Of a DNA stretch of 33,600 bases, positions 1,505 to 15,169 are shown piece after piece. The first letter of the stretch is position 1, and the number at the start of each line of letters is the position of its first letter. The notes below the pieces were generated by a model. The model did no database searches. It saw only the letters and a list, made by a program, of their open reading frames with translations, and had not been told where the DNA came from. Position numbers and translations under genes: made by a program. Source of the DNA: a virus; UHGV virus genome UHGV-1067530. One strand, written 5' to 3'.

Positions 1505-1558
1505 TCCGCTACCTTCTAAGTTTCTATAAAGGGGCTATCAAGTAACCCCCTCAAGTTA

Positions 1559-1783: not shown

Positions 1784-1859
1784 TACTTAGTCTCTCCATA
1801 GGCATCTTTTAAGATTGCCTTGTTAATCATTTCAGCTATTGCAAAACGAACACATACAG

Positions 1860-2393: not shown

Positions 2394-2578
2394 TCAAGGT
2401 CAACAAGTCTTTGCAGAACTTTCCCTCTAGGTGTTACACCTTTTAAATCTGCATCATAGCAATGGTAAAAATCACCTTCAGCGTGCTTACCATAGCATTT
2501 TCTGATATTCTGGCTTCTGCGATACTGTTCTAACAGGGAAAGTTTGTAGTAGTCTTCAACTGTAGTTAGTTTTTTCAT
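2360..2578 (-). CDS. hypothetical protein (72 aa)
   Basis: ORF overlaps its neighbours by 34 nt and 4 nt; true start uncertain. Confidence 0.3.
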   Translation of the reverse strand: MKKLTTVEDYYKLSLLEQYRRSQNIRKCYGKHAEGDFYHCYDADLKGVTPRGKVLQRLVDLEWNKRLRGVGK

Positions 2579-3120: not shown

Positions 3121-3192
3121 ATCTACTCTCCAGAAACTAAAAAGGGAACTACCTCTCGATAGCTCCCATCATAATCAGTTTTGTATAATTGG

Positions 3193-3774: not shown

Positions 3775-4118
3775 TACAGTTTCCTCATTAAATACTTTTT
3801 AAGTTGTGTGTTAGGTTTCTCAAAAACTTCTATAGAAGATATCTTGACAGATTCACCACGCATACCAGTATGTTTGAATATGTAATACTCTAGCATTCCT
3901 ATGTACTTTGCTGGTAAGTCGTATTTGACATACACCGTCACAGAATCTTCAAATTCAACGACCTTTGTACCATCTTTGTAGTTAAACTCTTTAGGATGGT
4001 TGTAGTTGTCTATGTCGTACATTAAAAAGAGTCTTTTACGTTGTAAGTCAAGCTTATTTGTTAAAGACTCTTTGATATCTGCGAAGTTTTTGTAAACTGT
4101 GACATGGAGCTTACTCAT
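3774..4118 (-). CDS. hypothetical protein (114 aa)
   Basis: ORF; start overlaps the upstream gene. Confidence 0.45.
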   Translation of the reverse strand: MSKLHVTVYKNFADIKESLTNKLDLQRKRLFLMYDIDNYNHPKEFNYKDGTKVVEFEDSVTVYVKYDLPAKYIGMLEYYIFKHTGMRGESVKISSIEVFEKPNTQLKKYLMRKL

Positions 4119-4404
4119 CGTTAAACTCTCTGACGAAGAAATAGTTGACTTTGTTATTGCCTACCATAAGGTCAAAGCAGGTATTCTCAAAAGGTTTGTT
4201 GTAGGCATCATAGGAAGTGTGTGTATCAGCTACTTGTTTAGTATTGAGCTTTTTACTTGATGGGTTTAAGAGGCCACCATACAGTTTCTTGATAGCCTCT
4301 TCTACAACAGACCAGATAATTTCGTCAGTAATTTCTTCGTACAGGTCAAGTTCACGCTCTAGTGAGAAGTCACAAATAGGGAAAACAACCTGTACTTTAC
4401 TCAT
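4111..4404 (-). CDS. hypothetical acidic protein (97 aa)
   Basis: ORF; Glu/Asp-rich. Confidence 0.45.
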   Translation of the reverse strand: MSKVQVVFPICDFSLERELDLYEEITDEIIWSVVEEAIKKLYGGLLNPSSKKLNTKQVADTHTSYDAYNKPFENTCFDLMVGNNKVNYFFVREFNDE

Positions 4405-4799
4405 TAACGAATAACCTGTGAGACTTGAATTGCTTCAGTTACTGACAAGTCACCTACTTTCTCTTCTTTGATAAAAGTGAAGGTGAGTTCAACAGGTTCT
4501 TGCTCTTCTTGCTCAACTGGAACACCATTAAGCTCATCAAAGATTGACTGAGTTGTCCAGTCTTCTCCACCATCTGGATAGTGGACTGCATAAAGAGGAA
4601 ACTCTAAATTATACCAAGCAAAAACAGGACAACCGTCGGCATCATCTCGGCATCTGTGGAGATATGTGTTTGTACCTTCAAAATGCAAATGAAGATTGCC
4701 ATTCTTCTCAAAGAGAAGAGCATCTTGCAGGTCTAGTTCCTCATTTTCGCTGTAACGACTGACATCAACTTTAACGTGGATATGACTGTTATTATTCAT
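4404..4799 (-). CDS. hypothetical acidic protein (131 aa)
   Basis: ORF; many E/D residues (EQEEQEPVE, DDADG). Confidence 0.5.
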   Translation of the reverse strand: MNNNSHIHVKVDVSRYSENEELDLQDALLFEKNGNLHLHFEGTNTYLHRCRDDADGCPVFAWYNLEFPLYAVHYPDGGEDWTTQSIFDELNGVPVEQEEQEPVELTFTFIKEEKVGDLSVTEAIQVSQVIR

Positions 4800-5190
4800 A
4801 AAAACCTCTCTCTGCTTGTTCGATTTTTGCTCTTAAAATTTCACAGCGTTCTATGTGATATCTGGCCTCATGCTCATGTGTTGCCAAAGTCCTTTCAAGG
4901 ACTGTTTTATAGTAACTCGCAAGCTGCCCTCTTGTCAAGGGGTGTTCTGAAATAATATCAAGGCCACTTTCACCTAGAGTATTAAACTGCCCGTGTTCAT
5001 TTACATGGTAAGTCTCAAACTTGAACAGGCCGTTGTTAGCAGACTCGATAGGTGAGAGTTCAGCCAACTCAACAGTGAACATTGTGTGTACCCTATCACC
5101 AACTGTAACAATGTTGCTCCCAATAATTCGTACCATAGAGCCATTACGAGTGTACTTAAAAGTTCCAACATCATCAGCCCAAAGTTTCAT
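4792..5190 (-). CDS. hypothetical protein (132 aa)
   Basis: ORF preceded on the minus strand by an AGGAG-type RBS. Confidence 0.5.
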   Translation of the reverse strand: MKLWADDVGTFKYTRNGSMVRIIGSNIVTVGDRVHTMFTVELAELSPIESANNGLFKFETYHVNEHGQFNTLGESGLDIISEHPLTRGQLASYYKTVLERTLATHEHEARYHIERCEILRAKIEQAERGFYE

Positions 5191-5200
5191 AGTTTTCTCC

Positions 5201-5228
5201 TTAGAAAATAAAAAAGGCTCCCGAAGGA
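5201..5228 (-). terminator. Putative intrinsic terminator after the lysozyme gene
   Basis: Stem GGCTCC/GGAGCC with loop cgaa; on the minus strand it is followed by TTTTTTATTTT. Confidence 0.5.
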
Positions 5229-5241
5229 GCCTATGAAGATA

Positions 5242-5706
5242 TTACTTTGGATATACACTGTCAAGATAAATGTCAGCTTCCATTCTACGTCTGTTTTTCA
5301 GGCCGTTTGAAGTGACTTTCTTACCTTTGACTGTAACCTTGTTCCACCACTGCATAGCTTCTGCACAACCTACCTTATTACCAGCGTTGTGGCGCTTGAT
5401 AAATGTAGAGTCCTGCATAGCTGTGATGCCAATGTTGTATGTTTCACTTACAAGTGCGTCAAACTCATTCTGGGAAGTTGGAACCTTGATGGATTTGTTC
5501 ACTGCTGCAACGAACTTTTCAACATCTGCGAGAAGATACTGTTCAGCTTGTTCAGCCGTAATTTTCATACCCATCTTAACAGGTTTTCCGTCAATACGGA
5601 TTGTACCATACCCGATTGTTGGGATTCCGGCAGAATCTTCGTAAGCCTCTAGCTTAAGACCTTCAAAGAACTTAATAGCTTCTAAACCTTTTCTTGAGAG
5701 TTGCAT
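5242..5706 (-). CDS. Lysozyme / endolysin, T4-lysozyme-like (glycoside hydrolase family 24)
   Basis: N-terminal FEGLKLEAYEDSAGIPTIGYG matches the T4 lysozyme catalytic motif (E...D...T, [21 protein letters not shown]). Confidence 0.8.
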   Translation of the reverse strand: MQLSRKGLEAIKFFEGLKLEAYEDSAGIPTIGYGTIRIDGKPVKMGMKITAEQAEQYLLADVEKFVAAVNKSIKVPTSQNEFDALVSETYNIGITAMQDSTFIKRHNAGNKVGCAEAMQWWNKVTVKGKKVTSNGLKNRRRMEADIYLDSVYPK

Positions 5707-6338
5707 TATGCCTCCCCTGCTGGGTTAACAGTAACTGTTGCCACATTAGATGTTACAGAGCCACCTGCGCCAGTAACTACACAGGTGTAGCTTCCTGAAT
5801 CAGCAGCGGTTGCACCTTCTTTGGTGTAAGTTGCAGTAGTTGCATCGAGGATATCTTCCTCACCTTTCTTCCACTGGTAACCTGTCGCACCTGTTGCCGC
5901 AACATTCAGCGTTAAGGTCTCACCTTCAGTGATTTCTTGATTGGTTGGCTGCTGAGTGATTGCTGGTGGCTTGATAGCATCCTTCAACTTAGCATTCAAC
6001 ATTGAGAACGGCTTAACCATTGCCAGCCATTCACAATAAATTGTATCAACGTCTTTACCATTGATAATTGCATATTGTAAGTCCATGAAGAAGTCAGAAG
6101 TTCTCATTTGAGCACCGATGCTGTAAAGCAACTCATCACTAAATGGGACTTTGTAGTCTGGTTTGTAGTCAAACTCCTCAACTTCTGCAATATCAGCTTC
6201 AGGCCAATACGAACTATAGGTAAGTGGTAAAATAGCCTCTTGATATGTTCTAAAATCATATCTCTTACCAGCTTTTACGTTTGCAATGAAGCCCTTCACA
6301 AACTCTTTGAAGTCTGGGTAAGTCTTTGCTTTAATCAT
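5706..6338 (-). CDS. hypothetical protein with C-terminal Ig-like domain (210 aa)
   Basis: C-terminus (ITQQPTNQEITEGETLTLNVAATGATGYQWKKG...SGSYTCVVTGAGGSVTSNVATVTV) reads as an Ig-like fold; N-terminal ~120 aa is paralogous to the 6335-6706 product. Confidence 0.55.
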   Translation of the reverse strand: MIKAKTYPDFKEFVKGFIANVKAGKRYDFRTYQEAILPLTYSSYWPEADIAEVEEFDYKPDYKVPFSDELLYSIGAQMRTSDFFMDLQYAIINGKDVDTIYCEWLAMVKPFSMLNAKLKDAIKPPAITQQPTNQEITEGETLTLNVAATGATGYQWKKGEEDILDATTATYTKEGATAADSGSYTCVVTGAGGSVTSNVATVTVNPAGEA

Positions 6339-6706
6339 TTCTTTTTAGCCTCTAAATGTGCGTTTAGTCTAAAATAACCTTTGTGATGCGGAGATACATC
6401 ACCAACAACAATACCTTTAACCTTATAGCCTTTACCAATTACATACTGGATATCCATAAGGAATCTTCCAAGACCAACAATATGGAACATTGGATATAAT
6501 AGATTCTCAGAATCTGGAATATTGATTTCAGGTTTGTAGGTGCGTTGTTCGCTTGTCGGTGTAATATCTTCTTCAGGCCATTTACTGAGTCTCCATGTCA
6601 AAGGTGTTGGGATAACATCATTAAGGTTGTACCTTTCACCATTTTGCACGGAATTGATATAGGATTGTAGGAAGCAATAAAAGTCTTTTGCACTCTTAGC
6701 TTTCAT
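6335..6706 (-). CDS. hypothetical protein (123 aa), paralog of the 5706-6338 N-terminal domain
   Basis: Shared motifs WPEEDI/WPEADI, YKP, MDIQYVI/MDLQYAI. Confidence 0.5.
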   Translation of the reverse strand: MKAKSAKDFYCFLQSYINSVQNGERYNLNDVIPTPLTWRLSKWPEEDITPTSEQRTYKPEINIPDSENLLYPMFHIVGLGRFLMDIQYVIGKGYKVKGIVVGDVSPHHKGYFRLNAHLEAKKK

Positions 6707-6753
6707 TAAATATCCTTATAAATAGTTAAAGGGGCATCAGCCCCTATTCACAC

Positions 6754-7344
6754 TTAAGCTTTGGTCTTAAGTAGGTTCTTAAGTTTTTTAAGATTCATGC
6801 TCTCATCAAACTTAAAACCAAATCCATTGACATAATCAATGAACTCGGATTTCTTACTGAGTGACAATGCGTAACTCATATCAAAGTTCTTACTTGTTTC
6901 TGCGTCTGGACTAGAGTTCACATCAAATGAAATTTCTGTAGGCTCTTGCTTACTTTTTCTCATATTATCAATTAACAAACATGTATAGTTTGCTGGATAG
7001 AAGTTTACACTACCATCAACGTAGCTGTACTTATTATTATGGATAAGGTTGGAAAATACCTTAAGGAATGTTTCTGAGTCGTGGCAAACAAGTTTGAATT
7101 GGCTGCTCTCTCCAAGCGCAACTAATGAGTACGGACTTTCACTATCAAAGTCATAGTTTGGATTTGATGCCGTCACTGTTACACGCATCAAGTTATTAGC
7201 AATAGTCTTCTGTTTAAAAGAATTTTGAACATAGTGAAGACCCCTCTCACACTGATTGACTAGCTCTTTAAGTAGGTCATTTGCATATGGTGAGTTAATT
7301 GATACAGAGCCGTCACTATTGTAATTAAAACTTACTGTTAACAT
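6754..7344 (-). CDS. hypothetical protein (196 aa)
   Basis: ORF in early-block context. Confidence 0.5.
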   Translation of the reverse strand: MLTVSFNYNSDGSVSINSPYANDLLKELVNQCERGLHYVQNSFKQKTIANNLMRVTVTASNPNYDFDSESPYSLVALGESSQFKLVCHDSETFLKVFSNLIHNNKYSYVDGSVNFYPANYTCLLIDNMRKSKQEPTEISFDVNSSPDAETSKNFDMSYALSLSKKSEFIDYVNGFGFKFDESMNLKKLKNLLKTKA

Positions 7345-7571
7345 TTTTCAGTTCTCCTGCGATTTATAATTTTGCTGCAATAGAGAAACGAAGTAAACTC
7401 ACTGGAAGAAACCACTAAGTGTTGTTCACTAGATTGAGCCATTGCCCTGAAATACATTCCAGTCAAAGCATCATAGTGACTATTCTTTCCAATTGAGGTT
7501 ATATAGCCATGACTCTTTGCAGTTTGATATAAATCTATAATATCTGCGATTTCTAATTGGGAACTACACAT
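7338..7571 (-). CDS. hypothetical protein (77 aa)
   Basis: ORF overlapping neighbours. Confidence 0.35.
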   Translation of the reverse strand: MCSSQLEIADIIDLYQTAKSHGYITSIGKNSHYDALTGMYFRAMAQSSEQHLVVSSSEFTSFLYCSKIINRRRTEKC

Positions 7572-7735
7572 AGATAATCCTCTTGTCTTCTGTAATTTTG
7601 AAAGAACAGGTACAGACCAATTTCAGAGGACGAATAGTAGATTAATTCTACCCTTTTTGATTCCTTACAGTGATTGGTATTCTTACCTTTCTTCGGTTTA
7701 TTTGATTTTCTCATTAAGTCTCCTTTGTAGAACAA
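7553..7735 (-). CDS. hypothetical basic protein (60 aa)
   Basis: Short ORF, first in the leftward block; weak support. Confidence 0.3.
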   Translation of the reverse strand: MFYKGDLMRKSNKPKKGKNTNHCKESKRVELIYYSSSEIGLYLFFQNYRRQEDYLCVVPN

Positions 7736-7814
7736 GGCAGACCTACAGCTTTAAGTAAGATGGTACAGTAATCCATACAACAAGTCAAGAACTATTGCAA
7801 GTTAAAAAAGTTGT

Positions 7815-7854
7815 TGACAAAGCACTTGACAAGGTATAGGCTTATAAATACTTA
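7815..7854 (+). promoter_or_regulatory. Putative sigma70-like promoter region (two TTGACA boxes)
   Basis: aaaaagttgTTGACA at 7815-7820 and TTGACA at 7826-7831; weak -10 candidates (TACTTA) 17 nt downstream. Confidence 0.3.
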
Positions 7855-7963
7855 GAAGATAACTTAAAAGGTTCCTCTAAAAAGGCTATTTAAACAGATA
7901 TCTTTCTGGATATCTATCTTTTATCTTAAAAGCCTTTTAAGAGGTCTTATAAGAGGCATACCA

Positions 7964-8335
7964 ATGAAAAACAGAACAAACAAAGGCCAGTTTAAAAAAG
8001 GCCAGTCTGGAAACCCATCTGGAAGACCAAAAGGCTCTCGTAACAAAAGCTCACTCGTAAAAGCTCAACTGACCATTGATAATTCTGCTGAGTTTGCTGC
8101 AAAGTTGTTTGAAGCGATTGTTACAAGGGACGCTGCTAAGCTTGCAGAGTTCGGGTTAAACACAGACGACGTAACCATCAAGAGCATGATTGAGGTCGGT
8201 AAAACTATCATGACCCACTCAGCAGGTGAGATGAAAGCAATTGCAGCAGATACTAAGAAGACTCCTGATAACAGTAGTCAGTCTCAGACAGAAAACAAAC
8301 CAACGTTCTCTGCTGTTGCAACTCTCAAAAAATAA
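7964..8335 (+). CDS. hypothetical basic protein with N-terminal GQSGNPSGRPKGS motif (DUF5681-like)
   Basis: KGQFKKGQSGNPSGRPKGSRNK motif recalled from phage DUF5681-type proteins; not verified by search. Confidence 0.5.
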   Translation: MKNRTNKGQFKKGQSGNPSGRPKGSRNKSSLVKAQLTIDNSAEFAAKLFEAIVTRDAAKLAEFGLNTDDVTIKSMIEVGKTIMTHSAGEMKAIAADTKKTPDNSSQSQTENKPTFSAVATLKK

Positions 8336-8347
8336 TTTTAAAAGATG

Positions 8348-8377
8348 TTGACAGGCTCTACAAAGTTACTCTAAAGT
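8348..8377 (+). promoter_or_regulatory. Putative promoter upstream of the vWA gene
   Basis: aaaagatgTTGACA, 18-nt spacer, TAAAGT. Confidence 0.35.
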
Positions 8378-8416
8378 CTGTCACATCAAACAACAAATGA
8401 GAGAAGAGAGTAAAAT

Positions 8417-9832
8417 ATGAGCGAATTATTTAAACATGCGCACCTTCATGCAGGTCGAACTGAAAATGGTGCTGTAAACCATACTTCATCAATGTCTGCT
8501 CTTGTAGACTTTTACAAAGCTGCTGGTTCAAGCCGTAGCAACGTAGAAATCTTACCAGACCTGTTCTACAAAGCTTTGCGTGAGGATGTTGATGTTGCAG
8601 TTCGTATTTTACTGCATATGCGAGATGTACGAGAAGGTATTGGTGAGCGTAAAGCCTTCAGAACTGTTTTGCTTCAAGCAATTGAAGATAAAGTTTTAGA
8701 GCCTACACAGGTTCTTCGCATTATGGATAAGATTGCAGAACTTGGTCGTTTTGATGACTTCAAAATCTTCGTAGGTACTCGTTTCGAGACAGATGCCTTC
8801 AAACATTTAGAAGCAGCATTACTAGACCCTGCAACAGCAGGTTTGGCAGCCAAGTGGCTACCACGAGTCAAACCACGTCATAAGCAGTTTGTAAAACGTT
8901 TCTGTAAGTTTGCCAACTTGAGTGAGAAAGAGTATCGCACACTGTTGTCTGCGCTCTCTGATACAGTTGAGCAAAAAATCTCTGCTAATGAGTTTGGCAA
9001 GATTGACTACAGTAAGATTCCTTCACTTGCTGCTGCACGTTACCAAAAACTGTTTAACCGCAAAGATGGAGAACGCTACAAAGCTTACATCGAGTCCTTA
9101 TCAAAGGGTGAGACTAAGATTAATGCTGGTGCTGTTTACCCATACGATGTGATTAAGTCTGTTAAGTATGGTAATGCAGATGTTGCTAATGAGCAGTGGA
9201 AAGCACTACCAAACTGGATGGCAGAGGGTGAAAACATTCTCTGTATGTCTGATGTTTCACGTTCAATGTCTTGGGTGAATTTTGGCTCCATTACTACTCT
9301 GGATATTGGTGTATCACTTGCATTGTATGTAGCAGAACGCAATACAGGTTGCTTTAAAAATGAGTTAATGGTTTACTCAACAAACCCTCACTTCATCGAA
9401 CTGAGTGGTGATTTACGAAACCGTCATCGTCAGGTGATGCGGCACGTTGAATATGGCTCAACTAACTTACAAGCAGCTTTTGACCGTATTCTTGAGACAG
9501 GTAAAAGAAATAACTTGACTCAGAAAGATATGCCAAGTAAGCTTATCATCTTCTCAGATATGGAGTTCAATCAGGTTGATGGAGCTAACGGTCGCACAAA
9601 CTTTGAAGCAATCCAGAGTAAGTACAAGAAAGCTGGATACGAAATGCCACAACTGGTATTCTGGTACTTAGCAAACCGTAATGGTACTTGCGAAGTATCT
9701 GTTAAGGATAACGGTGTAGCAATGGTATCTGGTTTCTCTCCAGCCACTTTAAAAGCTCTGCTTGGTGGTGAGAAGTTTGACCCTATCAGCGTAATGCTCA
9801 AAGCAGTAATGATTGACCGTTATATCTGGTAA
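8417..9832 (+). CDS. vWA-domain protein with N-terminal alpha-helical domain; possibly Ro60/TROVE-like (DUF2828-type)
   Basis: MIDAS motif in ILCMSDVSRSMS (DxSxS), downstream YGSTNL (T) and LIIFSDMEF (D) at vWA-typical spacing; N-terminal ~270 aa has no motif I recognise; the TROVE assignment is inference. Confidence 0.55.
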   Translation: MSELFKHAHLHAGRTENGAVNHTSSMSALVDFYKAAGSSRSNVEILPDLFYKALREDVDVAVRILLHMRDVREGIGERKAFRTVLLQAIEDKVLEPTQVLRIMDKIAELGRFDDFKIFVGTRFETDAFKHLEAALLDPATAGLAAKWLPRVKPRHKQFVKRFCKFANLSEKEYRTLLSALSDTVEQKISANEFGKIDYSKIPSLAAARYQKLFNRKDGERYKAYIESLSKGETKINAGAVYPYDVIKSVKYGNADVANEQWKALPNWMAEGENILCMSDVSRSMSWVNFGSITTLDIGVSLALYVAERNTGCFKNELMVYSTNPHFIELSGDLRNRHRQVMRHVEYGSTNLQAAFDRILETGKRNNLTQKDMPSKLIIFSDMEFNQVDGANGRTNFEAIQSKYKKAGYEMPQLVFWYLANRNGTCEVSVKDNGVAMVSGFSPATLKALLGGEKFDPISVMLKAVMIDRYIW

Positions 9833-9850
9833 AAAGTTTTAAAAAGGGTA

Positions 9851-9879
9851 TTGACAATGTGTTTGATACCCTTTAATAT
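9851..9879 (+). promoter_or_regulatory. Putative sigma70-like promoter heading the tRNA array
   Basis: TTGACA (9851-9856), 17-nt spacer, TAATAT (9874-9879); the -35 sits inside the inverted repeat GGGTAT...ATACCC. Confidence 0.45.
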
Positions 9880-9941
9880 GTTCTACATAGAAACGAAACG
9901 AGAGCTTTTCTAAGATACTGAAAAATATTTTAAAAAAGTTC

Positions 9942-9971
9942 TTGACAATCACTAAAAAATAATGTTAAAGT
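9942..9971 (+). promoter_or_regulatory. Putative second promoter upstream of tRNA-Pro
   Basis: aaaaaagttcTTGACA, 18-nt spacer, TAAAGT; same architecture as the 8348 promoter. Confidence 0.35.
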
Positions 9972-9997
9972 GGTTACATAGAGTTTGAAAAGTTTAT

Positions 9998-10074
9998 CTC
10001 TGTTTAGCTCAGCTTGGTAGAGCGTTCCGTTTGGGGCGGTAAGGCCGGAGGTTCAAGTCCTCCAACAGAGACCA
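9998..10074 (+). tRNA. tRNA-Pro (anticodon TGG)
   Basis: Acceptor CTCTGTT/AACAGAG, D-arm GCTC/GAGC, anticodon loop TTTGGGG, T-arm GGAGG-TTCAAGT-CCTCC, encoded CCA. Confidence 0.8.
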
Positions 10075-10081
10075 AATTAAT

Positions 10082-10159
10082 GTTCCAGTAGACAAAATGG
10101 TATAGTCACCACTCTTTCAAAGTGGATATTTGAGGGTTCAAATCCCTTCTGGAACGCCA
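10082..10159 (+). tRNA. tRNA-Glu (anticodon TTC)
   Basis: Acceptor GTTCCAG/CTGGAAC, anticodon stem CCACT/AGTGG, loop CTTTCAA, T-loop TTCAAAT, CCA. Confidence 0.8.
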
Positions 10160-10162
10160 GTT

Positions 10163-10239
10163 TTGACAGAAGACCAATTACAGCAAACTTAATCTTATTC
10201 ATCTGAAGGTAAATCGGACAAAGAAGAGATTTGGTCTGG
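10163..10239 (+). repeat. Inverted-repeat-bounded element, copy 1 (TTGACAGAAGACC-AA-TTACAGCAA ... TTGGTCTGG)
   Basis: 5' box CAGAAGACC + TTACAGCAA, 3' box GGTCTGG; termini AGACCAA/TTGGTCT are complementary. Confidence 0.6.
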
Positions 10240-10251
10240 TCATTAAGAATT

Positions 10252-10327
10252 GCGGGTATAGAGAAAGGGCGTCTCACATGTCTCATTAGCATGGTATCGG
10301 CAGGTTCGACTCCTGCACCCGCCTCCA
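10252..10327 (+). tRNA. tRNA-Met/Ile2-like (anticodon CAT), slightly irregular acceptor/T-stem register
   Basis: Acceptor GCGGGTA, D-arm GAGA/TCTC, anticodon stem CATGT/GCATG, loop CTCATTA, T-arm GCAGG-TTCGACT-CCTGC; 3' strand ACCCGCC pairs with a 1-nt offset. Confidence 0.5.
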
Positions 10328-10329
10328 AA

Positions 10330-10397
10330 TTTACAGAAGACCGTTTACAGCAATATTTATTAAATTTTTAGCGGAAAAATTGAAAGATGTGGTCTGG
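10330..10397 (+). repeat. Inverted-repeat-bounded element, copy 2 (TTTACAGAAGACCGTTTACAGCAA ... GGTCTGG)
   Basis: 5' 27 nt identical to copy 4; internal AT-rich hairpin AATTTTT/AAAAATT. Confidence 0.6.
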
Positions 10398-10410
10398 TAA
10401 TACTAAACAT

Positions 10411-10487
10411 GGTTAGGAAGCACATAAGGTATGTGCGGTCGCCTGTTAAGCGAATGGCACAGGGTTCGAATCCCTGACTAACCGCCA
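10411..10487 (+). tRNA. tRNA-Asn (anticodon GTT)
   Basis: Acceptor GGTTAGG/ACTAACC, D-arm GCAC/GTGC, anticodon loop CTGTTAA, T-arm CAGGG-TTCGAAT-CCCTG, discriminator G, CCA. Confidence 0.75.
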
Positions 10488-10556
10488 AATTTAGGAGAGA
10501 AGCGATTGCTCACCGATTTGTAAGGTGCAAGTCCTTAGCCTGAATAGAAATTAAAT

Positions 10557-10644
10557 GTGTCGTTATCCCGTAGATGGTAGCGGTGGGGACTGTAAATCCC
10601 TTGTCATTGAGACTCGGTAGGTTCGACTCCTACACGGCACACCA
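10557..10644 (+). tRNA. tRNA-Tyr (anticodon GTA), long variable arm
   Basis: Acceptor GTGTCGT/ACGGCAC, anticodon loop CTGTAAA, ~15-nt variable arm, T-arm GTAGG-TTCGACT-CCTAC, CCA. Confidence 0.7.
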
Positions 10645-10649
10645 ACAAA

Positions 10650-10727
10650 GGTTATGTAGTTTAATTTGGTTAAAATACTCCCCTGTCACGGGAGATGATG
10701 AGGGTTCAAATCCCTTCGTAACCGCCA
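10650..10727 (+). tRNA. tRNA-Asp (anticodon GTC)
   Basis: Acceptor GGTTATG/CGTAACC, anticodon stem CTCCC/GGGAG, loop CTGTCAC, T-loop TTCAAAT, CCA. Confidence 0.75.
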
Positions 10728-10788
10728 ATTTTGAGAGGGCTATTTAGCCCCTCCCTTAAAGAGTTCTTACGAGTATTCTTTAAAGGAG

Positions 10789-10862
10789 CAGAAGACCAAA
10801 TACAGCAAGTTACTTAAAATTTCAAGCCAATTTAATTTTGAAAAATTTAAAACTTGGTCTGG
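10789..10862 (+). repeat. Inverted-repeat-bounded element, copy 3 (CAGAAGACC-AAA-TACAGCAA ... TTGGTCTGG)
   Basis: Same terminal boxes; interior is a long AT-rich imperfect hairpin (CAAGTTACTTAAAATTTCAA / TTGAAAAATTTAAAACTTG). Confidence 0.6.
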
Positions 10863-10871
10863 CTCAACAAA

Positions 10872-11006
10872 TTTACAGAAGACCGTTTACAGCAAAACTT
10901 AAACAATCTATTTCTCGGTAAAGAAAAGGAGAAGGTTCGATTCCTTCACTCGGCAGGTGTCGAGTTGGTGTAATGGTAGCACTTAAGATGATAAACAACG
11001 GTCTGG
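10872..11006 (+). repeat. Inverted-repeat-bounded element, copy 4 (TTTACAGAAGACCGTT ... AACGGTCTGG), containing tRNA-like fragments
   Basis: 8-bp terminal complementarity AGACCGTT/AACGGTCT; interior holds a T-arm (GAAGG-TTCGATT-CCTTC) followed by a D-arm-like segment. Confidence 0.6.
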
Positions 11007-11007
11007 T

Positions 11008-11151
11008 AATTATCTTTGTAGATAAGTTATTAAGCTTACCTGTGAGTATGCGACCACAAAGGGTGAAAGGGTAAATTCTAGATTTAAACCCAAAAAGGCA
11101 CATCGCTACAGACCTTAAGCAAGTCTGGGTAGCTTATCTACAAAGATAATT
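11008..11151 (+). repeat. 19-bp perfect inverted repeat (AATTATCTTTGTAGATAAG / CTTATCTACAAAGATAATT) flanking 106 nt
   Basis: Read directly: 11008-11026 is the exact reverse complement of 11133-11151; the interior contains CAGACC...GTCTGG. Confidence 0.7.
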
Positions 11152-11155
11152 TAAT

Positions 11156-11231
11156 GGAAGTGTAGCAGAATGGTGATGCGGCAGACTTTTAATCTGACAG
11201 GCGATGGGTTCGAATCCCTCCACTTCTACCA
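11156..11231 (+). tRNA. tRNA-Lys (anticodon TTT)
   Basis: Acceptor GGAAGTG/CACTTCT (G1-U72 wobble), anticodon loop CTTTTAA, T-loop TTCGAAT, discriminator A, CCA. Confidence 0.7.
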
Positions 11232-11235
11232 ATAT

Positions 11236-11312
11236 GGTTCAGTCGCAGATAAGGTAATGCAAGGGTCTCATAAGCCCTATGAATGTGGGTTCGATTCCCA
11301 TCTGAACCTCCA
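11236..11312 (+). tRNA. tRNA-Met or Ile2 (anticodon CAT)
   Basis: Acceptor GGTTCAG/CTGAACC, anticodon stem AGGGT/GCCCT, loop CTCATAA, T-arm TGGG-TTCGATT-CCCA, CCA. Confidence 0.75.
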
Positions 11313-11314
11313 AT

Positions 11315-11389
11315 TGTGGGTTAGCATAAATGGTAATGCAAACGGCTGATAACCGTTAGAAGAGGGTTCGATACCCTCACCTACAACCA
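11315..11389 (+). tRNA. tRNA-Ile (anticodon GAT)
   Basis: Acceptor TGTGGGT/ACCTACA, D-arm GCA/TGC, anticodon stem AACGG/CCGTT, loop CTGATAA, T-arm GAGGG-TTCGATA-CCCTC, CCA. Confidence 0.75.
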
Positions 11390-11404
11390 ATTTCAATAAA
11401 GTTG

Positions 11405-11433
11405 TTGACATTGAGATGTGACTACTTTATAGT
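11405..11433 (+). promoter_or_regulatory. Putative sigma70-like promoter inside the tRNA array
   Basis: aaagttgTTGACA (11405-11410), 17-nt spacer, TATAGT (11428-11433). Confidence 0.45.
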
Positions 11434-11439
11434 AACTAA

Positions 11440-11726
11440 AATACTTCAGAATATGTATAATTCAAACACCAATACATGAGCGTTAGACGTAACACAATGT
11501 GGGGAAATTTGTTGTACATATTCTGAATAGTTTTCGTTGCGTAGCGTCTATTTTGCAAATTTAAAATAAATGCAAACGACAATGTTTTTCTGGCAGTAGC
11601 TTGATAGGCTAAACACCAGTGAGGTCTTCCAATCCCTCATCAAAGAATTTGGCGTACTAGCCCACGGTATGATTAATAAGGTGGGCATCTTTAAGGGCTT
11701 TCTAAGAGAGTCTTTAAAGATAATTA
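11440..11726 (+). ncRNA. Candidate structured non-coding RNA region (ORF-free, multiple hairpins)
   Basis: No ORF of 60 aa or more; 13-bp perfect inverted repeat TTCAGAATATGTA (11445-11457) / TACATATTCTGAA (11515-11527); hairpins GCCCAC...GTGGGC, TGAGG...CCTCA, TTTGCA...TGCAAA; sits downstream of the 11405 promoter. Confidence 0.35.
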
Positions 11727-11808
11727 CGGGGCGTATCTCAGCGGTCTTCTAAACCGCCGTTAACCGAGTAAGTGGAGTATGCGGGTTCGAGTCCTGCCGC
11801 CTCGACCA
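11727..11808 (+). tRNA. tRNA-like, Arg(TCT)-type anticodon arm, atypical (no canonical D-arm, 23-nt segment before the T-arm)
   Basis: Acceptor CGGGGCG/CGCCTCG, anticodon stem GCGGT/ACCGC with loop CTTCTAA, T-arm GCGGG-TTCGAGT-CCTGC, discriminator A, CCA; the D-arm 3' strand is not identifiable. Confidence 0.45.
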
Positions 11809-11950
11809 ATTAGTTAGCAGATTACTTAGACGACCTAAGCGGGTCTTCCTGTAGGGAGGTGGTCTGTATCTCATGTTTTCCAGAACATGTAAATAATCTG
11901 AGAAGGGGCTTTACAGTGTTGAGATAATACGGTAAGCTTCGAATTATAGT

Positions 11951-12033
11951 ATGGGACGATGTTAAGACTCTAAGGCATGAGCAACGGCTTCCAACACCGT
12001 TTCAAAGGGGTTCAACTCCTCCGTCCCATGCCA
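11951..12033 (+). tRNA. tRNA-like, Trp(CCA)-type anticodon loop, atypical (7 extra nt in the D region)
   Basis: Acceptor ATGGGAC/GTCCCAT perfect, hairpin ACGGC-TTCCAAC-ACCGT, T-arm AGGGG-TTCAACT-CCTCC, discriminator G, CCA; D region is 26 nt. Confidence 0.4.
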
Positions 12034-12046
12034 AAGTCTTATTAGG

Positions 12047-12134
12047 GGTAGGTAGCGGCTAATGGTAGCCAAACTGTCTTGAAAACAGTTGCCACTGTAG
12101 AGATACGGTGAGGGTTCGACTCCTTTACTTACCG
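12047..12134 (+). tRNA. tRNA-Ser (anticodon TGA), long variable arm; CCA not encoded
   Basis: Acceptor GGTAGGT/ACTTACC, anticodon stem ACTGT/ACAGT, loop CTTGAAA, ~20-nt variable arm, T-arm GAGGG-TTCGACT-CCTTT, discriminator G. Confidence 0.7.
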
Positions 12135-12137
12135 CCT

Positions 12138-12391
12138 AATAAGATTTAAAGCCAAGCTTCATTCGGATGTCGCTTTGGTATCCCGCGTGTATTGTCGTAC
12201 ACACTGATAAAACACCTAGTAGGTGTCACGGAGAAGAGATAATATCAAGCTCTCCAAAGGTTCTAGTCACCGGATTAAACAAGACTATGCAAAGACCTTT
12301 TTAGGTCTTTTTAGAGGGCTTCTAAGGTTATTACAGCTTGTTGTGGAACCTTGTTGCTTAGGTTCTTAGAAGTTCTCTAAAAAGATTTAAT
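12138..12391 (+). ncRNA. Candidate structured non-coding region (hairpins, terminator-like stem, long CTTCTAAG/CTTAGAAG hairpin)
   Basis: ORF-free; hairpins GTGTA...TACAC, ACACCTA...TAGGTGT, GGAGA...TCTCC; AAAGACC-TTTTT-AGGTCTTT followed by a T-run (about 12288-12312); inverted repeat CTTCTAAG (12320) / CTTAGAAG (12365). Confidence 0.3.
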
Positions 12392-12469
12392 GGGAGATTG
12401 ACGGTAATTGGTAAACCTACCATCCTTAGAAGTTGGTGTTTGAGGGTTCGAATCCCTTGTCTCCTACCA
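12392..12469 (+). tRNA. tRNA with Leu-type anticodon TAG but short (5-nt) variable loop
   Basis: Acceptor GGGAGAT/GTCTCCT, anticodon stem CCATC/GTTGG (one U-U), loop CTTAGAA, T-arm GAGGG-TTCGAAT-CCCTT, discriminator A, CCA. Confidence 0.55.
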
Positions 12470-12476
12470 AATTAAT

Positions 12477-12552
12477 GCAGGTGTAGCAAAATGGTTATGC
12501 GGCTGACTCTTAATCAGTAAGACGATGGGTTCAATTCCCTCCACCTGTACCA
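12477..12552 (+). tRNA. tRNA-Lys (anticodon CTT)
   Basis: Acceptor GCAGGTG/CACCTGT, anticodon stem GCTGA/TCAGT, loop CTCTTAA, T-loop TTCAATT, discriminator A, CCA; close paralog of the 11156 tRNA. Confidence 0.7.
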
Positions 12553-12558
12553 GACATT

Positions 12559-12634
12559 TGGGTCATAGTTTATATGGTTAAAATTCGAGTTTTGCAAACT
12601 TGGGAACTGAGTTCAATTCTCAGTGACTCCACCA
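12559..12634 (+). tRNA. tRNA-Ala (anticodon TGC)
   Basis: G3-U70 wobble present in the acceptor (TGGGTCA/TGACTCC), anticodon stem CGAGT/ACTTG, loop TTTGCAA, T-arm CTGAG-TTCAATT-CTCAG, discriminator A, CCA; 1-72 is unpaired (T/C). Confidence 0.7.
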
Positions 12635-12640
12635 ATTAGT

Positions 12641-12715
12641 GCATCCATAGTTTAAACGGGAAAATTACAGTCTTCCAAACTGAGGTTGAGGGTTCGATTC
12701 CCTCTGGATGCTCCA
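12641..12715 (+). tRNA. tRNA-Gly (anticodon TCC)
   Basis: Acceptor GCATCCA/TGGATGC perfect, anticodon loop CTTCCAA, T-arm GAGGG-TTCGATT-CCCTC, CCA. Confidence 0.75.
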
Positions 12716-12721
12716 AACAAT

Positions 12722-12798
12722 GCTGCTTTCGTATAATTGGCTATTACACATCCCTTGTAAGGATGGAAATGCAGGTTCGAGTCCTGTGAGCAGCACCA
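12722..12798 (+). tRNA. tRNA-Thr (anticodon TGT)
   Basis: Acceptor GCTGCTT/GAGCAGC, anticodon stem CATCC/GGATG, loop CTTGTAA, T-arm GCAGG-TTCGAGT-CCTGT, discriminator A, CCA. Confidence 0.8.
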
Positions 12799-12799
12799 A

Positions 12800-12893
12800 T
12801 TCAGAGGTCAAGTGAAAGACCGCTGGTGTCAACTGAAGACCGTAACAAATTCCACGGAGTTGAGTTAGCGGCACAACTTCAGACCTCTTTCAC
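12800..12893 (+). repeat. Repeat/palindrome-rich spacer related to the CAGAAGACC element family
   Basis: CTGAAGACCGTAACA (12836-) resembles the 5' box; AGAGGTC...GACCTCT and CTGAAG...CTTCAG inverted repeats. Confidence 0.4.
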
Positions 12894-12968
12894 ACTCGCT
12901 TAGTTTATATGGTAAAACATCACCCTTACAAGATGAAGAAAAAGGTTCAAGTCCTTTAGTGAGTACCA
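12894..12968 (+). tRNA. tRNA-Val (anticodon TAC)
   Basis: Acceptor ACTCGCT/AGTGAGT, D-stem GTTT, anticodon loop CTTACAA, T-arm AAAGG-TTCAAGT-CCTTT, discriminator A, CCA. Confidence 0.65.
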
Positions 12969-12969
12969 T

Positions 12970-13047
12970 GTTCCAGTATCCCAATTGGCAGAGGATGCAA
13001 GCTCAAACCTTGTATTAGTGACGGTTCGAATCCGTCTTGGAACACCA
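12970..13047 (+). tRNA. tRNA with Leu-type anticodon CAA but short (6-nt) variable loop
   Basis: Acceptor GTTCCAG/TTGGAAC, D-loop AATTGGCAGAG, anticodon stem TGCAAG/CTTGTA with loop CTCAAAC, T-arm GACGG-TTCGAAT-CCGTC, discriminator A, CCA. Confidence 0.55.
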
Positions 13048-13065
13048 ATTTAAAGAGGCTATTTA

Positions 13066-13623
13066 ATGAGATATTTGAAGTATGCTTCATGGATTTTCTT
13101 AGCTTTACTAGACCCAATTGCAGCAATCCTAGCAGTTATCTTAGCACCTTTCGTAGTTCCATTCTACAGTGAGAAGAAAGGACATCTACCTTTTGGATTC
13201 AGATGGATGGAGACCTATGACAACCCGATTGATGGTGACGAAGGTCACGTTAAAAGATGGGCTAAGATTAGAAAGATTGGTAAGCTGGGTGTCTACATGC
13301 AGAGAGTTGGGTGGCTCTGGAGAAACAAAGCTTATAACTTCTCTTACCATGTATTAGGAAGAGATGTAAAAGATGTTACTAAGTGGAGAGGTAATATCAA
13401 CGTAAGTTCTGACCCTGAAGATAATCAGACTGGTTATCTCCTAATGTGGAACAACAATGCTTGGGGATTATTCGCTTTTATTCCGTCAATTAAAGTCTTT
13501 GGTAAACAGTTTTACTGGAGAATTTATGTTGGATGGAAACTAAAAAGTGTTGTCCCAGAAGAAAGAGCATTCTCAAGGGAAAGAGTTATGTTGGCATTCT
13601 TTATTCATCCACTGAGAAAGTAA
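13066..13623 (+). CDS. hypothetical membrane protein (185 aa) embedded in the tRNA array
   Basis: ORF with RBS aaagagg upstream; N-terminal hydrophobic helix WIFLALLDPIAAILAVILAPFVVPF; Trp/Arg-rich remainder. Confidence 0.6.
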   Translation: MRYLKYASWIFLALLDPIAAILAVILAPFVVPFYSEKKGHLPFGFRWMETYDNPIDGDEGHVKRWAKIRKIGKLGVYMQRVGWLWRNKAYNFSYHVLGRDVKDVTKWRGNINVSSDPEDNQTGYLLMWNNNAWGLFAFIPSIKVFGKQFYWRIYVGWKLKSVVPEERAFSRERVMLAFFIHPLRK

Positions 13624-13631
13624 AGATTTAA

Positions 13632-13707
13632 AGGGGATTAGTTTACAAGGTTAAAACCTCGGTCTTTGAAATCGAAGAAGTTGGTTCAATTCCAACATCC
13701 CCCGCCA
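13632..13707 (+). tRNA. tRNA-Gln (anticodon TTG)
   Basis: Acceptor AGGGGAT/ATCCCCC with unpaired 1-72, discriminator G, anticodon stem TCGGT/ATCGA, loop CTTTGAA, T-arm GTTGG-TTCAATT-CCAAC, CCA. Confidence 0.7.
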
Positions 13708-13709
13708 AT

Positions 13710-13788
13710 GCTCCATTACTCCAATTGGCAGAGAGGCCAGACTTAAAATCTGTGTTATGTATCGGTTCGAATCCGATATGGAGTACCA
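13710..13788 (+). tRNA. tRNA with Leu-type anticodon TAA but short (7-nt) variable loop
   Basis: Acceptor GCTCCAT/ATGGAGT, D-loop AATTGGCAGAG, anticodon stem CCAGA/TCTGT, loop CTTAAAA, T-arm ATCGG-TTCGAAT-CCGAT, discriminator A, CCA. Confidence 0.55.
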
Positions 13789-13793
13789 ATTTT

Positions 13794-13869
13794 AGCGGTA
13801 TAGCATAACTGGCAATGCAGCAGTCTCTGAAGCTGTCCTATTAAGGTTCAAATCCTTATGCCGCTGCCA
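13794..13869 (+). tRNA. tRNA-Gln (anticodon CTG)
   Basis: Acceptor AGCGGTA/TGCCGCT, D-arm GCAT/ATGC, anticodon loop CTCTGAA, T-arm TAAGG-TTCAAAT-CCTTA, discriminator G, CCA. Confidence 0.7.
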
Positions 13870-13900
13870 CTTCTAAGGGTTCTTACGAGAGTCCTTAAAT

Positions 13901-13976
13901 GTGGCCTTATCATAAACGGTAATGACCCATGCTGTGAACATGGTCTATACGGGTTCAAATCCCGTAGGTCACCCCA
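13901..13976 (+). tRNA. tRNA-His (anticodon GTG)
   Basis: Acceptor GTGGCCT/AGGTCAC, D-arm TCAT/ATGA, anticodon stem CCATG/CATGG, loop CTGTGAA, T-arm ACGGG-TTCAAAT-CCCGT, discriminator C, CCA; position -1 is T, not G. Confidence 0.8.
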
Positions 13977-13981
13977 ATTTA

Positions 13982-14058
13982 TAGTCCAAGTAGCTTATAT
14001 GGTTAAAGCGCGTGTCTGAAAAACATGAGAAGAGGGTTCAAATCCCACTGGACTACCA
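13982..14058 (+). tRNA. tRNA-Phe (anticodon GAA), acceptor register slightly irregular
   Basis: D-arm GCTT/AAGC, anticodon stem CGTGT/ACATG, loop CTGAAAA, T-loop TTCAAAT; acceptor TAGTCCA/TGGACTA pairs perfectly but leaves a 4-nt linker before the D-stem. Confidence 0.6.
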
Positions 14059-14074
14059 ATTTCAAAGGTGCTTA

Positions 14075-14809
14075 ATGAAAGAGATGACAGGACAAGGTAA
14101 GGAGATTTTTAATCTCTTAAAAACCGGTAAAGGGTTTTCTAACCCACTTATTACTGGTGCAGCAGTTCTCGGTGGAACCGTAGCTGCCTCTACATCACTT
14201 GTAAGCTCTATTAGCTCTGTAACAGACCCGACAATGAATGAGAAACTTGTTGCTGCTGGACTTACAACAGTCCTTCTAAACAGCTTTACAACAAGCCTGA
14301 CAAGCACTACAGCAACTACTAAGACCCTAACAGACTATGGTCAAAAGTCTATTGATGAGTTTTCATCACGTATGCAGGTAGCAAAGGGGTATTCCAATGT
14401 TATGGGTGCAGCAGGAGAACAAGTTGGTTGTACACCATTCAGTGGTATTATGGGTGTTGCTACAGAGTATGGTCAAAAAGCTATTGACATGATTAACAGC
14501 ACACTAGACAGTGTTAACGGTGTGTTAAGTGACTTACAAGACGCTATTGATAAGGGTCTTGATACTGTTTCTGATTTAGCTAATCAAGCTGTTAGCAAGA
14601 TTAATGAAGGTATCTCAAAGATTACAGCTTATGCAGATGAAGTTGTGCAGATGATTGAAGAAGAAGCTGCCCTTATTGCAGAGTACCTTAAAACGAATAT
14701 CAATGGGTTCTTAGCAGGTATCTTACCAGACTGGTTTGATGATGCTCGCAAAACTGGTGTAATCGACACTATTGCAACACCAGAAATGAAGAACGCATTA
14801 CAGAAATAA
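14075..14809 (+). CDS. hypothetical Ser/Thr-rich protein (244 aa)
   Basis: The ORF track starts at 14012 inside tRNA-Phe; first ATG with an upstream aaagg RBS is 14075 (MKEMTGQ...); S/T-rich N-half, helical C-half. Confidence 0.55.
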   Translation: MKEMTGQGKEIFNLLKTGKGFSNPLITGAAVLGGTVAASTSLVSSISSVTDPTMNEKLVAAGLTTVLLNSFTTSLTSTTATTKTLTDYGQKSIDEFSSRMQVAKGYSNVMGAAGEQVGCTPFSGIMGVATEYGQKAIDMINSTLDSVNGVLSDLQDAIDKGLDTVSDLANQAVSKINEGISKITAYADEVVQMIEEEAALIAEYLKTNINGFLAGILPDWFDDARKTGVIDTIATPEMKNALQK

Positions 14810-14810
14810 T

Positions 14811-14903
14811 GGAAGATTAACCCTAAAAGGTAAGGGAGCAGTTTGCTAAACTGCCAGTAGCTGAGAAATCGGTGTACCAGTTCAAGTCTGGTATCTTCCT
14901 CCA
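14811..14903 (+). tRNA. tRNA-Ser (anticodon GCT), long variable arm
   Basis: Acceptor GGAAGAT/ATCTTCC perfect, D-stem CCC/GGG, anticodon stem GCAGT/ACTGC, loop TTGCTAA, ~20-nt variable arm, T-arm ACCAG-TTCAAGT-CTGGT, CCA. Confidence 0.8.
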
Positions 14904-14907
14904 ATCT

Positions 14908-14983
14908 GAATCCGTGACAGAAATGGATATGTGCCTGTCTGCAAAACAGGTTTATAAGGGTTCAAGTCCCTTCGGATTCTCCA
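14908..14983 (+). tRNA. tRNA-Cys (anticodon GCA)
   Basis: Acceptor GAATCCG/CGGATTC perfect, anticodon stem CCTGT/ACAGG, loop CTGCAAA, T-arm AAGGG-TTCAAGT-CCCTT, discriminator T, CCA. Confidence 0.8.
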
Positions 14984-15145: not shown

Positions 15146-15169
15146 GACGGTCTCTGTGCCGTCTTTTTT
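15146..15169 (+). terminator. Putative intrinsic terminator or attenuator upstream of the packaging operon
   Basis: Stem GACGG/CCGTC with loop tctctgtg, followed by TTTTTT. Confidence 0.45.

Follow-up and report, generated by a model that had tools for sequence, protein, structure and literature searches.

The 185-codon open reading frame (ORF) at positions 13066..13623 of the virus genome UHGV-1067530 (hereafter the window, i.e., the whole stretch of DNA analysed, 33,600 nt) is a genuine gene that looks expressed and encodes a DUF7338 protein. This protein is predicted with good support to be a bitopic inner-membrane protein, with a short cytoplasmic N-terminus, one transmembrane (TM) helix in N-in/C-out orientation, and about 150 amino acids forming a basic, Trp-rich alpha/beta domain of novel fold that would face the periplasm. 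At slightly less than even confidence, we favour for it a role as an accessory, periplasm-facing, inner-membrane-anchored factor acting on the host envelope around the time of lysis. Family membership is clear-cut: the Pfam profile DUF7338 (PF24027) is matched at E 1.4e-62 (211 bits vs. a curated gathering cut-off of 27), with residues 1-184 aligned to profile positions 1-176 of 180, and PHROG 2143 at E 1e-81. A full-length match at that E-value, together with the 890 clusters of the family described below, rules out a chance ORF. The features of the region are the following:

11405..11433, plus strand: sigma-70-like promoter match (TTGACA-17-TATAGT, 11/12), the nearest strong one, a consensus match only
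12970..13047, plus strand: tRNA-Leu(CAA), upstream flank of the ORF (ARAGORN and Rfam)
13052..13058, plus strand: Shine-Dalgarno AAAGAGG, 7 nt before the ATG (read from the sequence)
13066..13623, plus strand: CDS of 185 aa plus stop, ATG start, full-length DUF7338 (PF24027) / PHROG 2143 match
13090..13164, plus strand: single TM helix, codons 9-33 (SWIFLALLDPIAAILAVILAPFVVPF; hydropathy, AlphaFold and alignments)
13165..13620, plus strand: basic Trp-rich alpha/beta domain, codons 34-185, predicted periplasmic (AlphaFold)
13213..13239, plus strand: loop motif T50-Y-D52-N53-P-I-D-G57-D58 (family pattern W.xT.DN..DGD)
13312..13326, plus strand: motif W83-L-W85-R86-N87 (alignments A1 and A2)
13632..13707, plus strand: tRNA-Gln(UUG), downstream flank of the ORF (ARAGORN and Rfam)
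14075-14809, between tRNA-Phe and tRNA-Ser: second CDS in the array, DUF7217 (E 3e-84)
15146..15163, plus strand: intrinsic-terminator-like hairpin after the last tRNA (pattern match only)

The ORF is tightly enclosed by tRNA genes, its Shine-Dalgarno sequence beginning 4 nt past the 3' end of tRNA-Leu(CAA) and its stop codon lying 8 nt before the start of tRNA-Gln(UUG). ARAGORN detected 24 tRNA genes, all on the plus strand between 9998 and 14983, of which Rfam confirmed 22 while adding a weak tRNA-like match at 11727-11805. The original prediction placed the ORF as the sole protein gene between tRNAs 19 and 20; it is indeed the only ORF of substance in this 584-nt inter-tRNA gap, but the flanking tRNAs are the 17th and 18th of the ARAGORN set (18th and 19th if the weak Rfam match is counted), and it is not the only protein gene of the array, which also holds the DUF7217 CDS.

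Over the 3.2 kb around the ORF, the window matches Salmonella phage Mushroom (Felixounavirus) with 100% identity and some 200 other Felix O1-like phages with 94-99%, whereas its left 12 kb are closer to VSe11 and ST11 than to Mushroom. By sequence identity, the window is assigned to a Felix O1-like Salmonella phage, a very close relative of Mushroom. The protein is identical to Mushroom gp128 (FDH40_gp128, YP_009600453.1), which is annotated “holin” and is the only CDS of that name in the examined parts of the Mushroom record. The gene is thus already catalogued, its product being the same, residue for residue, as an annotated RefSeq protein of a curated DUF family, and its sighting here adds nothing new in itself since RefSeq and Pfam both hold it; the suggestion that it had gone unrecognised does not stand, given the size of the curated family and the “holin” labels already present in several GenBank records.

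The name itself deserves scrutiny. The Mushroom genome announcement states that the phage encodes a class III holin with one TM domain, N-in and C-out (PMC4392139), and the “holin” of the Mushroom record is a topology-based guess. The Felix O1 paper named five other holin candidates and found no holin-lysin cassette (PMC3185647), and a later paper still considered the holin unidentified (PMC4837284). Most other records of homologs read “hypothetical”, the “putative holin” of the SUSP1 record is a different gene (agp028), and the “holin” label is now spreading in Felixounavirus annotations (Mushroom, the GEC_vB phages, ESCO49, HP1 and JLBYU32). Literature searches for DUF7338, PF24027, phrog_2143, Felix01p097 and the RefSeq accession returned no publication, and papers on a “class III holin” in UE-M6 and LPSEYT concern proteins unrelated to DUF7338. 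Describing the gene as uncharacterised was therefore right insofar as the family has no established function, but it overlooks the RefSeq “holin” label, the Pfam family and a knockdown phenotype in SUSP1 (see below).

Homologs of the protein were found by tblastn in 552 phage records, with identities of 85-100% in Felix O1-like phages, 56-61% in T4-like phages (Slopekvirus, Gelderlandvirus, and relatives of RB16, JS10/JS98 and GAP161) and 31-41% in jumbo phages. A second search from a distant member added phages of Pseudomonas, Vibrio and Aeromonas as well as one cyanophage, and all phage hosts listed in both searches are Gram-negative (diderm). At the scale of 1.84 billion representative proteins, a profile search (E <= 1e-3) recovered 890 clusters at 50% identity; among the 150 clusters listed, members are nearly all 160-215 aa long and single-domain. 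The ORF protein is a typical representative in its length, its single TM helix followed by a domain, and its conserved motifs. Only seven loci were recovered from 185,579 bacterial genomes, namely one phage-sized contig, loci of which the two inspected (L014 and L016) have prophage-like contexts, and short or other contigs of metagenome-assembled genomes, with no cellular family among them. Across phage lineages, DUF7338 is patchy and accessory in its spread, and the ~60% identity between copies from unrelated phage families implies horizontal transfer. The accessory nature proposed originally fits the absence of the gene from Erwinia phage phiEa21-4, a member of the same subfamily, and its presence in only some T4-like genera. 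As for a common, conserved housekeeping phage protein, the identification that would have spoken against the original view, homology searches did reveal a protein that is common and conserved, but its family has no established function and hence cannot be called housekeeping. Across Pfam, PHROGs, NCBIfam and PADLOC, only DUF7338 and PHROG 2143 were matched and no known lysis or exclusion family; NCBIfam and PADLOC gave no match at E <= 1, hence no defence or anti-defence family for this protein.

The composition of the protein (W 5.4%, R 7.0%, K 8.1%, no Cys, pI about 10) and the strongly hydrophobic, not SAR-like, segment at residues 9-27 (Kyte-Doolittle 2.47) agree with the original description of a 185-aa ORF with its own ribosome-binding site, an N-terminal TM helix and a Trp/Arg/Lys-rich body. 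The AlphaFold2 model, built on a 32-sequence alignment (pLDDT 94.5, pTM 0.85), likewise comprises a helix at residues 2-33 and then a compact alpha/beta domain with helices at 43-48, 59-64, 66-69, 73-86 and 90-96, and strands at 106-109, 123-128, 133-144, 147-157 and 176-184. Within the TM helix, P28 never varies across the family and W9 hardly does. Flank charges favour the predicted N-in/C-out orientation, positive charge being higher on the N-terminal than on the C-terminal side of this helix in 83% of 170 members; the median pI of the C-terminal domain over these 170 members is 9.4, and distant members have an acidic C-terminal flank.

Conservation in the domain is concentrated on a few positions. 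W83, W85, R86, N87 and G123 are invariant in alignments A1 and A2 (L84 nearly so), and T50, D52 and G57 do not vary in A1 and keep at least 90% conservation in A2; in a motif listing of 183 members, the pattern W.xT.DN..DGD occurs in most and WLWRN in about two thirds. Together with R152 and G156-W157-K158, conserved among close relatives, these positions include a conserved polar constellation made of T50, D52, N53, D58, R86, N87, R152 and K158. Foldseek comparison of the model with the PDB retrieved nothing at E <= 0.001 (best TM-score <0.2), a profile search of PDB sequences returned chance matches only (E >= 0.4), hhalign gave 0.13% probability for the family profile against the T holin of Klebsiella phage Matisse, and Foldseek against the viral BFVD library yielded family members only, all of them uncharacterised. 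Given this lack of matches, the modelled fold differs from those of all solved proteins, T4 holin included, and the family is one with no solved structure. One of the BFVD matches bears the automatic name “Envelope protein”, which we take as spurious.

To place the gene in its genomic setting, we considered 80 IMG/VR loci together with further loci of the family, with proteins clustered at 70% identity into 31 contexts, each comprising three neighbours on either side of the DUF7338 gene as called by a crude ORF caller. Among 30 such contexts, made non-redundant at 70% identity, 8 have a peptidoglycan hydrolase at most three genes away where roughly 2 would be expected, a rough enrichment with an approximate binomial p of about 1e-3 to 8e-3, and in six resolved loci the DUF7338 gene abuts the lysis cassette. 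Its downstream neighbours encode GH108 with PG_binding_3 (four loci), Hydrolase_2, Peptidase_M15 and Amidase_2 (one each), Rz (two), GTA_holin_3TM (two) and Phage_holin_4_1 (one), and its upstream neighbours carry tail-fibre or baseplate domains (Gp10_C, Gp53-like_C, GpJ, Collar, Mtd) and in one instance Phage_lysozyme. Adjoining genes are separated from it by 0-4 nt or overlap it, so that the DUF7338 gene forms part of the late operon and is no self-contained piece of cargo. Unrelated cargo genes, too, classically occupy the place behind the tail-fibre genes. Lysis cassettes are linked to DUF7338 through guilt by association, in about a quarter to a third of the contexts.

The tRNA setting of the window is a minority arrangement, with tRNA genes found within 3 kb of the DUF7338 gene in 6 of 31 contexts and the other 25 being nowhere near tRNAs. 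The six comprise the Felix-like phages, two T4-like groups, a 192-kb contig (L039), a 183-kb phage, and the prophage-like bacterial locus L016, the one case outside large phages; in the Felix-like phages and in the 192-kb contig, the gene has tRNAs on either side of it. For large phages, this linkage (entered as 5/9) yields a rough binomial p of about 4e-5. Cargo and homing endonucleases are known to accumulate in the tRNA regions of large phages, and the simplest reading of the linkage, by inference, is that these regions are recombination hotspots which exchange cargo. In keeping with this reading, the Felix-like and T4-like copies share ~60% identity, and the SUSP1 tRNA array contains an HNH endonuclease gene.

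The existing annotation would make the protein a T4-style class III holin, which builds up in the inner membrane and makes it permeable to a soluble lysozyme. We consider this rather improbable, although several observations speak for it: gp128 bears the name, the class III holin statement comes from a group expert in lysis (PMC4392139), the predicted one-TM N-in/C-out topology agrees, and several small phages have DUF7338 at the head of the lysis cassette. Felix O1-like phages moreover have no recognised canonical holin family (PMC3185647, PMC4837284). The resemblance to T4 holin T (PF11031) extends to size (185 aa vs. about 218 aa for T), to a single TM helix with predicted N-in/C-out orientation and a large periplasmic domain, and to a gene located away from that of the endolysin. 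However, the cytoplasmic N-terminus of the DUF7338 protein is only about 7 residues long, and neither sequence nor fold resembles T: Phage_holin_T (PF11031) is not matched in Pfam, the hhalign probability is that given above, and there is no fold match to solved T structures. Relatives 58-61% identical to the ORF protein also occur in T4-like phages with a genuine T holin of their own. Klebsiella phage Matisse thus encodes both a T holin (PF11031, E 1.5e-52), whose gene adjoins gene 38, and a DUF7338 protein (E 2.6e-65) that is 58% identical to the ORF protein and was left as “hypothetical” by annotators from the same group as for Mushroom. The same holds beyond T4-like phages, since all five resolved lysis-cassette contexts (5/5) contain another, canonical or classical, holin candidate: L020 (holin PF16080, lysozyme, DUF2570, LysC, DUF7338, terminase), L056 (DUF7338, Phage_holin_4_1, M15 peptidase), L024 (DUF7338, GTA_holin_3TM, GH108), L030 (DUF7338, then a phrog_3427 holin) and L006 (DUF7338, a 96-aa protein with TM and coiled coil, GH108, a 75-aa protein, Rz/Rz1), where the candidate is the 75-aa classical 2-TM protein. 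In L006 and L014 the order is tail fibre, assembly protein, DUF7338, then endolysin and Rz. The invariant polar motifs of the periplasmic domain are, furthermore, more typical of a binding or catalytic site.

Comparative and knockdown data point in both directions on the holin question. Erwinia phage phiEa21-4 lacks DUF7338 over its whole genome (tblastn and HMM; the positive control in the window gave E 8.7e-42) yet keeps a 26-tRNA array and the DUF7217 gene; beside its endolysin it has small “holin” genes for which no homolog was found in Mushroom. The pattern of DUF7338 vs. phiEa21-4 holin genes is complementary, as seen in a single comparison, and would fit a holin role, whereas the absence of DUF7338 as such counts against one. 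In the CRISPRi-ART screens, the SUSP1 ortholog agp134 was Semi-Fit (fitness 1.24, KS p 0.087, 3 guides; PMC11879866 supplement), the same class as T4 holin t, and endolysins were Not Fit; the T5 holin was Fit (PMC11879866). However, agp137, an ORF that merely overlaps two tRNA genes, was also Semi-Fit in SUSP1 (PMC11879866), and guides directed at the tRNA precursor may therefore act through the tRNAs and not the protein, so that the agp134 result may be a side effect of this kind. Other small membrane proteins of Felix-like genomes are equally good holin candidates, including a conserved 65-aa phrog_402 protein encoded after the tail fibres (truncated to 33 aa in the Mushroom annotation), whose SUSP1 ortholog agp027 was Fit (2.27, p 7e-4; PMC11879866), and a 68-aa protein with two TM helices, while the SUSP1 record names agp028 instead. 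The database label is thus weak and unverified, and it conflicts with the comparative evidence. It derives from topology, and the true holin of Felix O1, a widely used typing and biocontrol phage, may therefore be another protein.

Superinfection exclusion or another envelope modification unrelated to lysis, in which the protein would keep DNA from entering, or change a component of the surface or periplasm, and so shield the infected cell from productive attack by other phages or by the progeny of its own phage, is unlikely but to be taken seriously. The bitopic, periplasm-facing build resembles in outline that of T4 Sp/Imm-type exclusion proteins, the gene often sits right after tail-fibre genes, a known site of receptor-related cargo, or in the hypervariable tRNA regions of large phages, its patchy, accessory distribution with ~60% identity across unrelated phage families implies horizontal transfer, and the sigma-70-like promoters ahead of the tRNA blocks would permit early expression. 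Against this, no known exclusion or defence family was matched, translational coupling ties the gene to late and lysis genes instead of leaving it free with its own signals, and phages that use very different receptors share this protein; nor would a knockdown phenotype be expected for a pure exclusion gene when a single phage infects in the laboratory. A function linked to the surrounding tRNAs, i.e., their processing, modification or protection, is very improbable. Beyond the large-phage linkage, what speaks for it is that the ends of the mRNA would coincide with tRNA ends, but a TM-anchored and probably periplasmic protein could not reach tRNAs, most contexts are far from any tRNA, the large array of phiEa21-4 does without DUF7338, and the tRNA regions of large phages hold cargo and homing endonucleases anyway. 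The membrane and periplasm prediction, the tRNA-free contexts and phiEa21-4 led us to set this candidate aside.

An accessory role at the envelope around lysis is favoured because of the position in lysis operons, the many unrelated holin and endolysin partners, and hosts that, among those seen, all have a double membrane. The predicted protein would act alongside the canonical holin, endolysin and spanin, and not in their place. In phages of small or temperate type, its gene is translationally coupled into the late operon, either between tail-fibre and holin/endolysin genes or right after the spanins; the recombination-prone tRNA region is its place in Felix O1-like and T4-like phages, which have their lysis genes scattered. 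Since so many unrelated holin and endolysin families accompany DUF7338, its partner is less likely to be one particular phage lysis protein than a conserved component of the host envelope, be it peptidoglycan, lipid-linked precursors, LPS or anionic membrane; spanins likewise have a host-envelope target.

Two known types of lysis protein offer partial parallels to such an accessory factor. As with Rz-type i-spanins, the DUF7338 protein is predicted to be bitopic and N-in/C-out with a periplasmic body, and is encoded in or beside the lysis cassettes of Gram-negative phages whatever the holin or endolysin family. Unlike them, its model is a globular alpha/beta domain and not a coiled coil, and it comes without a partnered lipoprotein gene; canonical spanins are also present in the same genomes (gp091/gp092 in Mushroom), and are hence not replaced by DUF7338. 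T4 RI antiholin and Sp are membrane-tethered periplasmic regulators of lysis or superinfection, and DUF7338 is like them in being small, accessory and patchy, with an N-terminal membrane anchor and a periplasmic domain. In contrast, Pfam detected no homology to them, the hydropathy of the DUF7338 TM segment (2.47) is not that of a SAR domain, and the many unrelated holin families found beside DUF7338 argue against specific binding to a holin.

It is thus tempting to speculate, if only as a possibility we hold with some doubt, that DUF7338 represents a new functional class, a periplasmic binder or enzyme tethered to the inner membrane, with peptidoglycan, lipid-linked precursors or LPS as its target, and a widespread accessory in the lysis of Gram-negative phages. 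We are similarly hesitant about the fuller version of that idea, according to which a protein of new fold works next to holin, endolysin and spanin and owes its “holin” name in Felix O1-like genomes to mislabelling. In any case, this large, confidently folded family of novel fold is a tractable candidate for a new accessory lysis or envelope step, because of its repeated placement in lysis cassettes and its measurable fitness effect.

As regards expression, a scan of the interval between tRNA-Leu(CAA) and the ORF revealed no promoter-like site, and literature searches returned no transcriptome study of a Felixounavirus. Besides the match at 11405, further good sigma-70-like matches precede the tRNA blocks at 9851 and 9942, the total of promoter-like sites in the region being not above shuffle expectation. 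These patterns are suggestive of a transcript carrying both tRNAs and ORF, with a candidate start at 11405 and a possible end at 15146. Because tRNAs abut both ends of the ORF, its mRNA is probably made from the tRNA precursor transcript and, if these patterns hold, would be excised from that precursor.

The DUF7338 gene (13066-13623, plus strand, 185 aa) is bordered on both sides by tRNAs, with the following gaps:

13048-13065, upstream gap, 4 nt from the tRNA-Leu 3' end to the Shine-Dalgarno
13624-13631, downstream gap, 8 nt from the stop codon to tRNA-Gln

Since tRNAs punctuate the ORF in this layout, which recurs in the related phage SUSP1, the ends of its mRNA may be set by tRNA processing enzymes. 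As for the array itself (9998-14983), the tRNA genes of Salmonella phage Mushroom (NC_041923.1) and Klebsiella phage Matisse (NC_028750.1) were placed by both ARAGORN and Rfam on the other strand than in the RefSeq records of these phages. In both phages, the actual direction of the tRNAs is that of the flanking CDSs, and the recorded strand looks like an error. Three elements of the array were called by one tool but not fully by the other:

11727-11805, plus strand, extra tRNA-like element, weak Rfam match (31.7 bits), without an ARAGORN call
10251-10327, tRNA-Met, ARAGORN call, below the Rfam gathering score
10557-10644, tRNA-Tyr, ARAGORN call, below the Rfam gathering score, pseudo-tRNA in the Mushroom record

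This arrangement bears on how the CRISPRi-ART knockdown screen of SUSP1 is read, through one further locus:

NC_028808.2 85762-85935 (comparison locus L106), SUSP1 agp137, overlapping tRNA-Lys and tRNA-Ile

Although agp137 is probably not a genuine gene, it was classed as Semi-Fit; a loss of fitness via the tRNAs is therefore possible for guides that bind their precursor. This possibility weakens the Semi-Fit call of the DUF7338 ortholog agp134. The array holds a second protein gene:

14075-14809, plus strand, CDS of 244 aa, Pfam DUF7217 (E 3.2e-84)

Its product has one weak hydrophobic segment and is named "membrane protein" in other records; the gene is conserved directly 3' of the tRNA array in phiEa21-4 (gp43), and the SUSP1 ortholog, agp133, was Not Fit.

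As for holin or lysis functions, rival candidates are found in a gene pair that comes after the tail-fibre genes in each of the three genomes of Ounavirinae compared (Mushroom, SUSP1 and phiEa21-4):

Mushroom NC_041923.1 36487-37060 (comparison locus L104), SUSP1 agp027/agp028, phiEa21-4 gp73/gp74, conserved gene pair

The first of the two, whose product is a 65-aa membrane protein (phrog_402), was Fit in the SUSP1 screen; the Mushroom annotation cuts it to 33 aa. The second encodes a ~123-aa protein with a TM segment and a coiled coil (phrog_4038), and is a "putative holin" in the SUSP1 record but Not Fit in the screen. A protein of architecture similar to this 123-aa product (gp056 in Mushroom) lies next after DUF7338 in a Mu-like contig (comparison locus L006):

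L006 2877-3167, 96-aa protein, one TM helix and a coiled coil

It weakly matches an Rz-like spanin PHROG (E 6e-4), and a functional pairing with DUF7338 is possible. Further holin genes are annotated in phiEa21-4, two to three genes past endolysin gp37:

Comparison locus L107 17913-19300, phiEa21-4 gp34 (holin) and gp35 (putative holin)

Our hydrophobicity scan of gp34 and gp35 found a hydrophobic segment in gp35 (53 aa) only, where a note in the record gives two TM domains. Given that phiEa21-4 has no DUF7338, and that neither gp34 nor gp35 has a homolog in Mushroom, lysis gene sets differ within a single subfamily.

Regarding the origin of the window, identity to Mushroom does not extend through all of it: positions 1-12000 have their best matches in the Salmonella phages VSe11/VSe102, at 99.4% identity with 95% query coverage, and ST11, at 97.7%. 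Near the lysozyme gene, the ORF layout differs from that of the Mushroom record. Downstream of the lysozyme gene block lies an ORF that is identical in Mushroom:

1860-2393, minus strand, 177-aa ORF, two TM helices predicted at residues 97-115 and 134-152

Its product is another uncharacterised predicted membrane protein.
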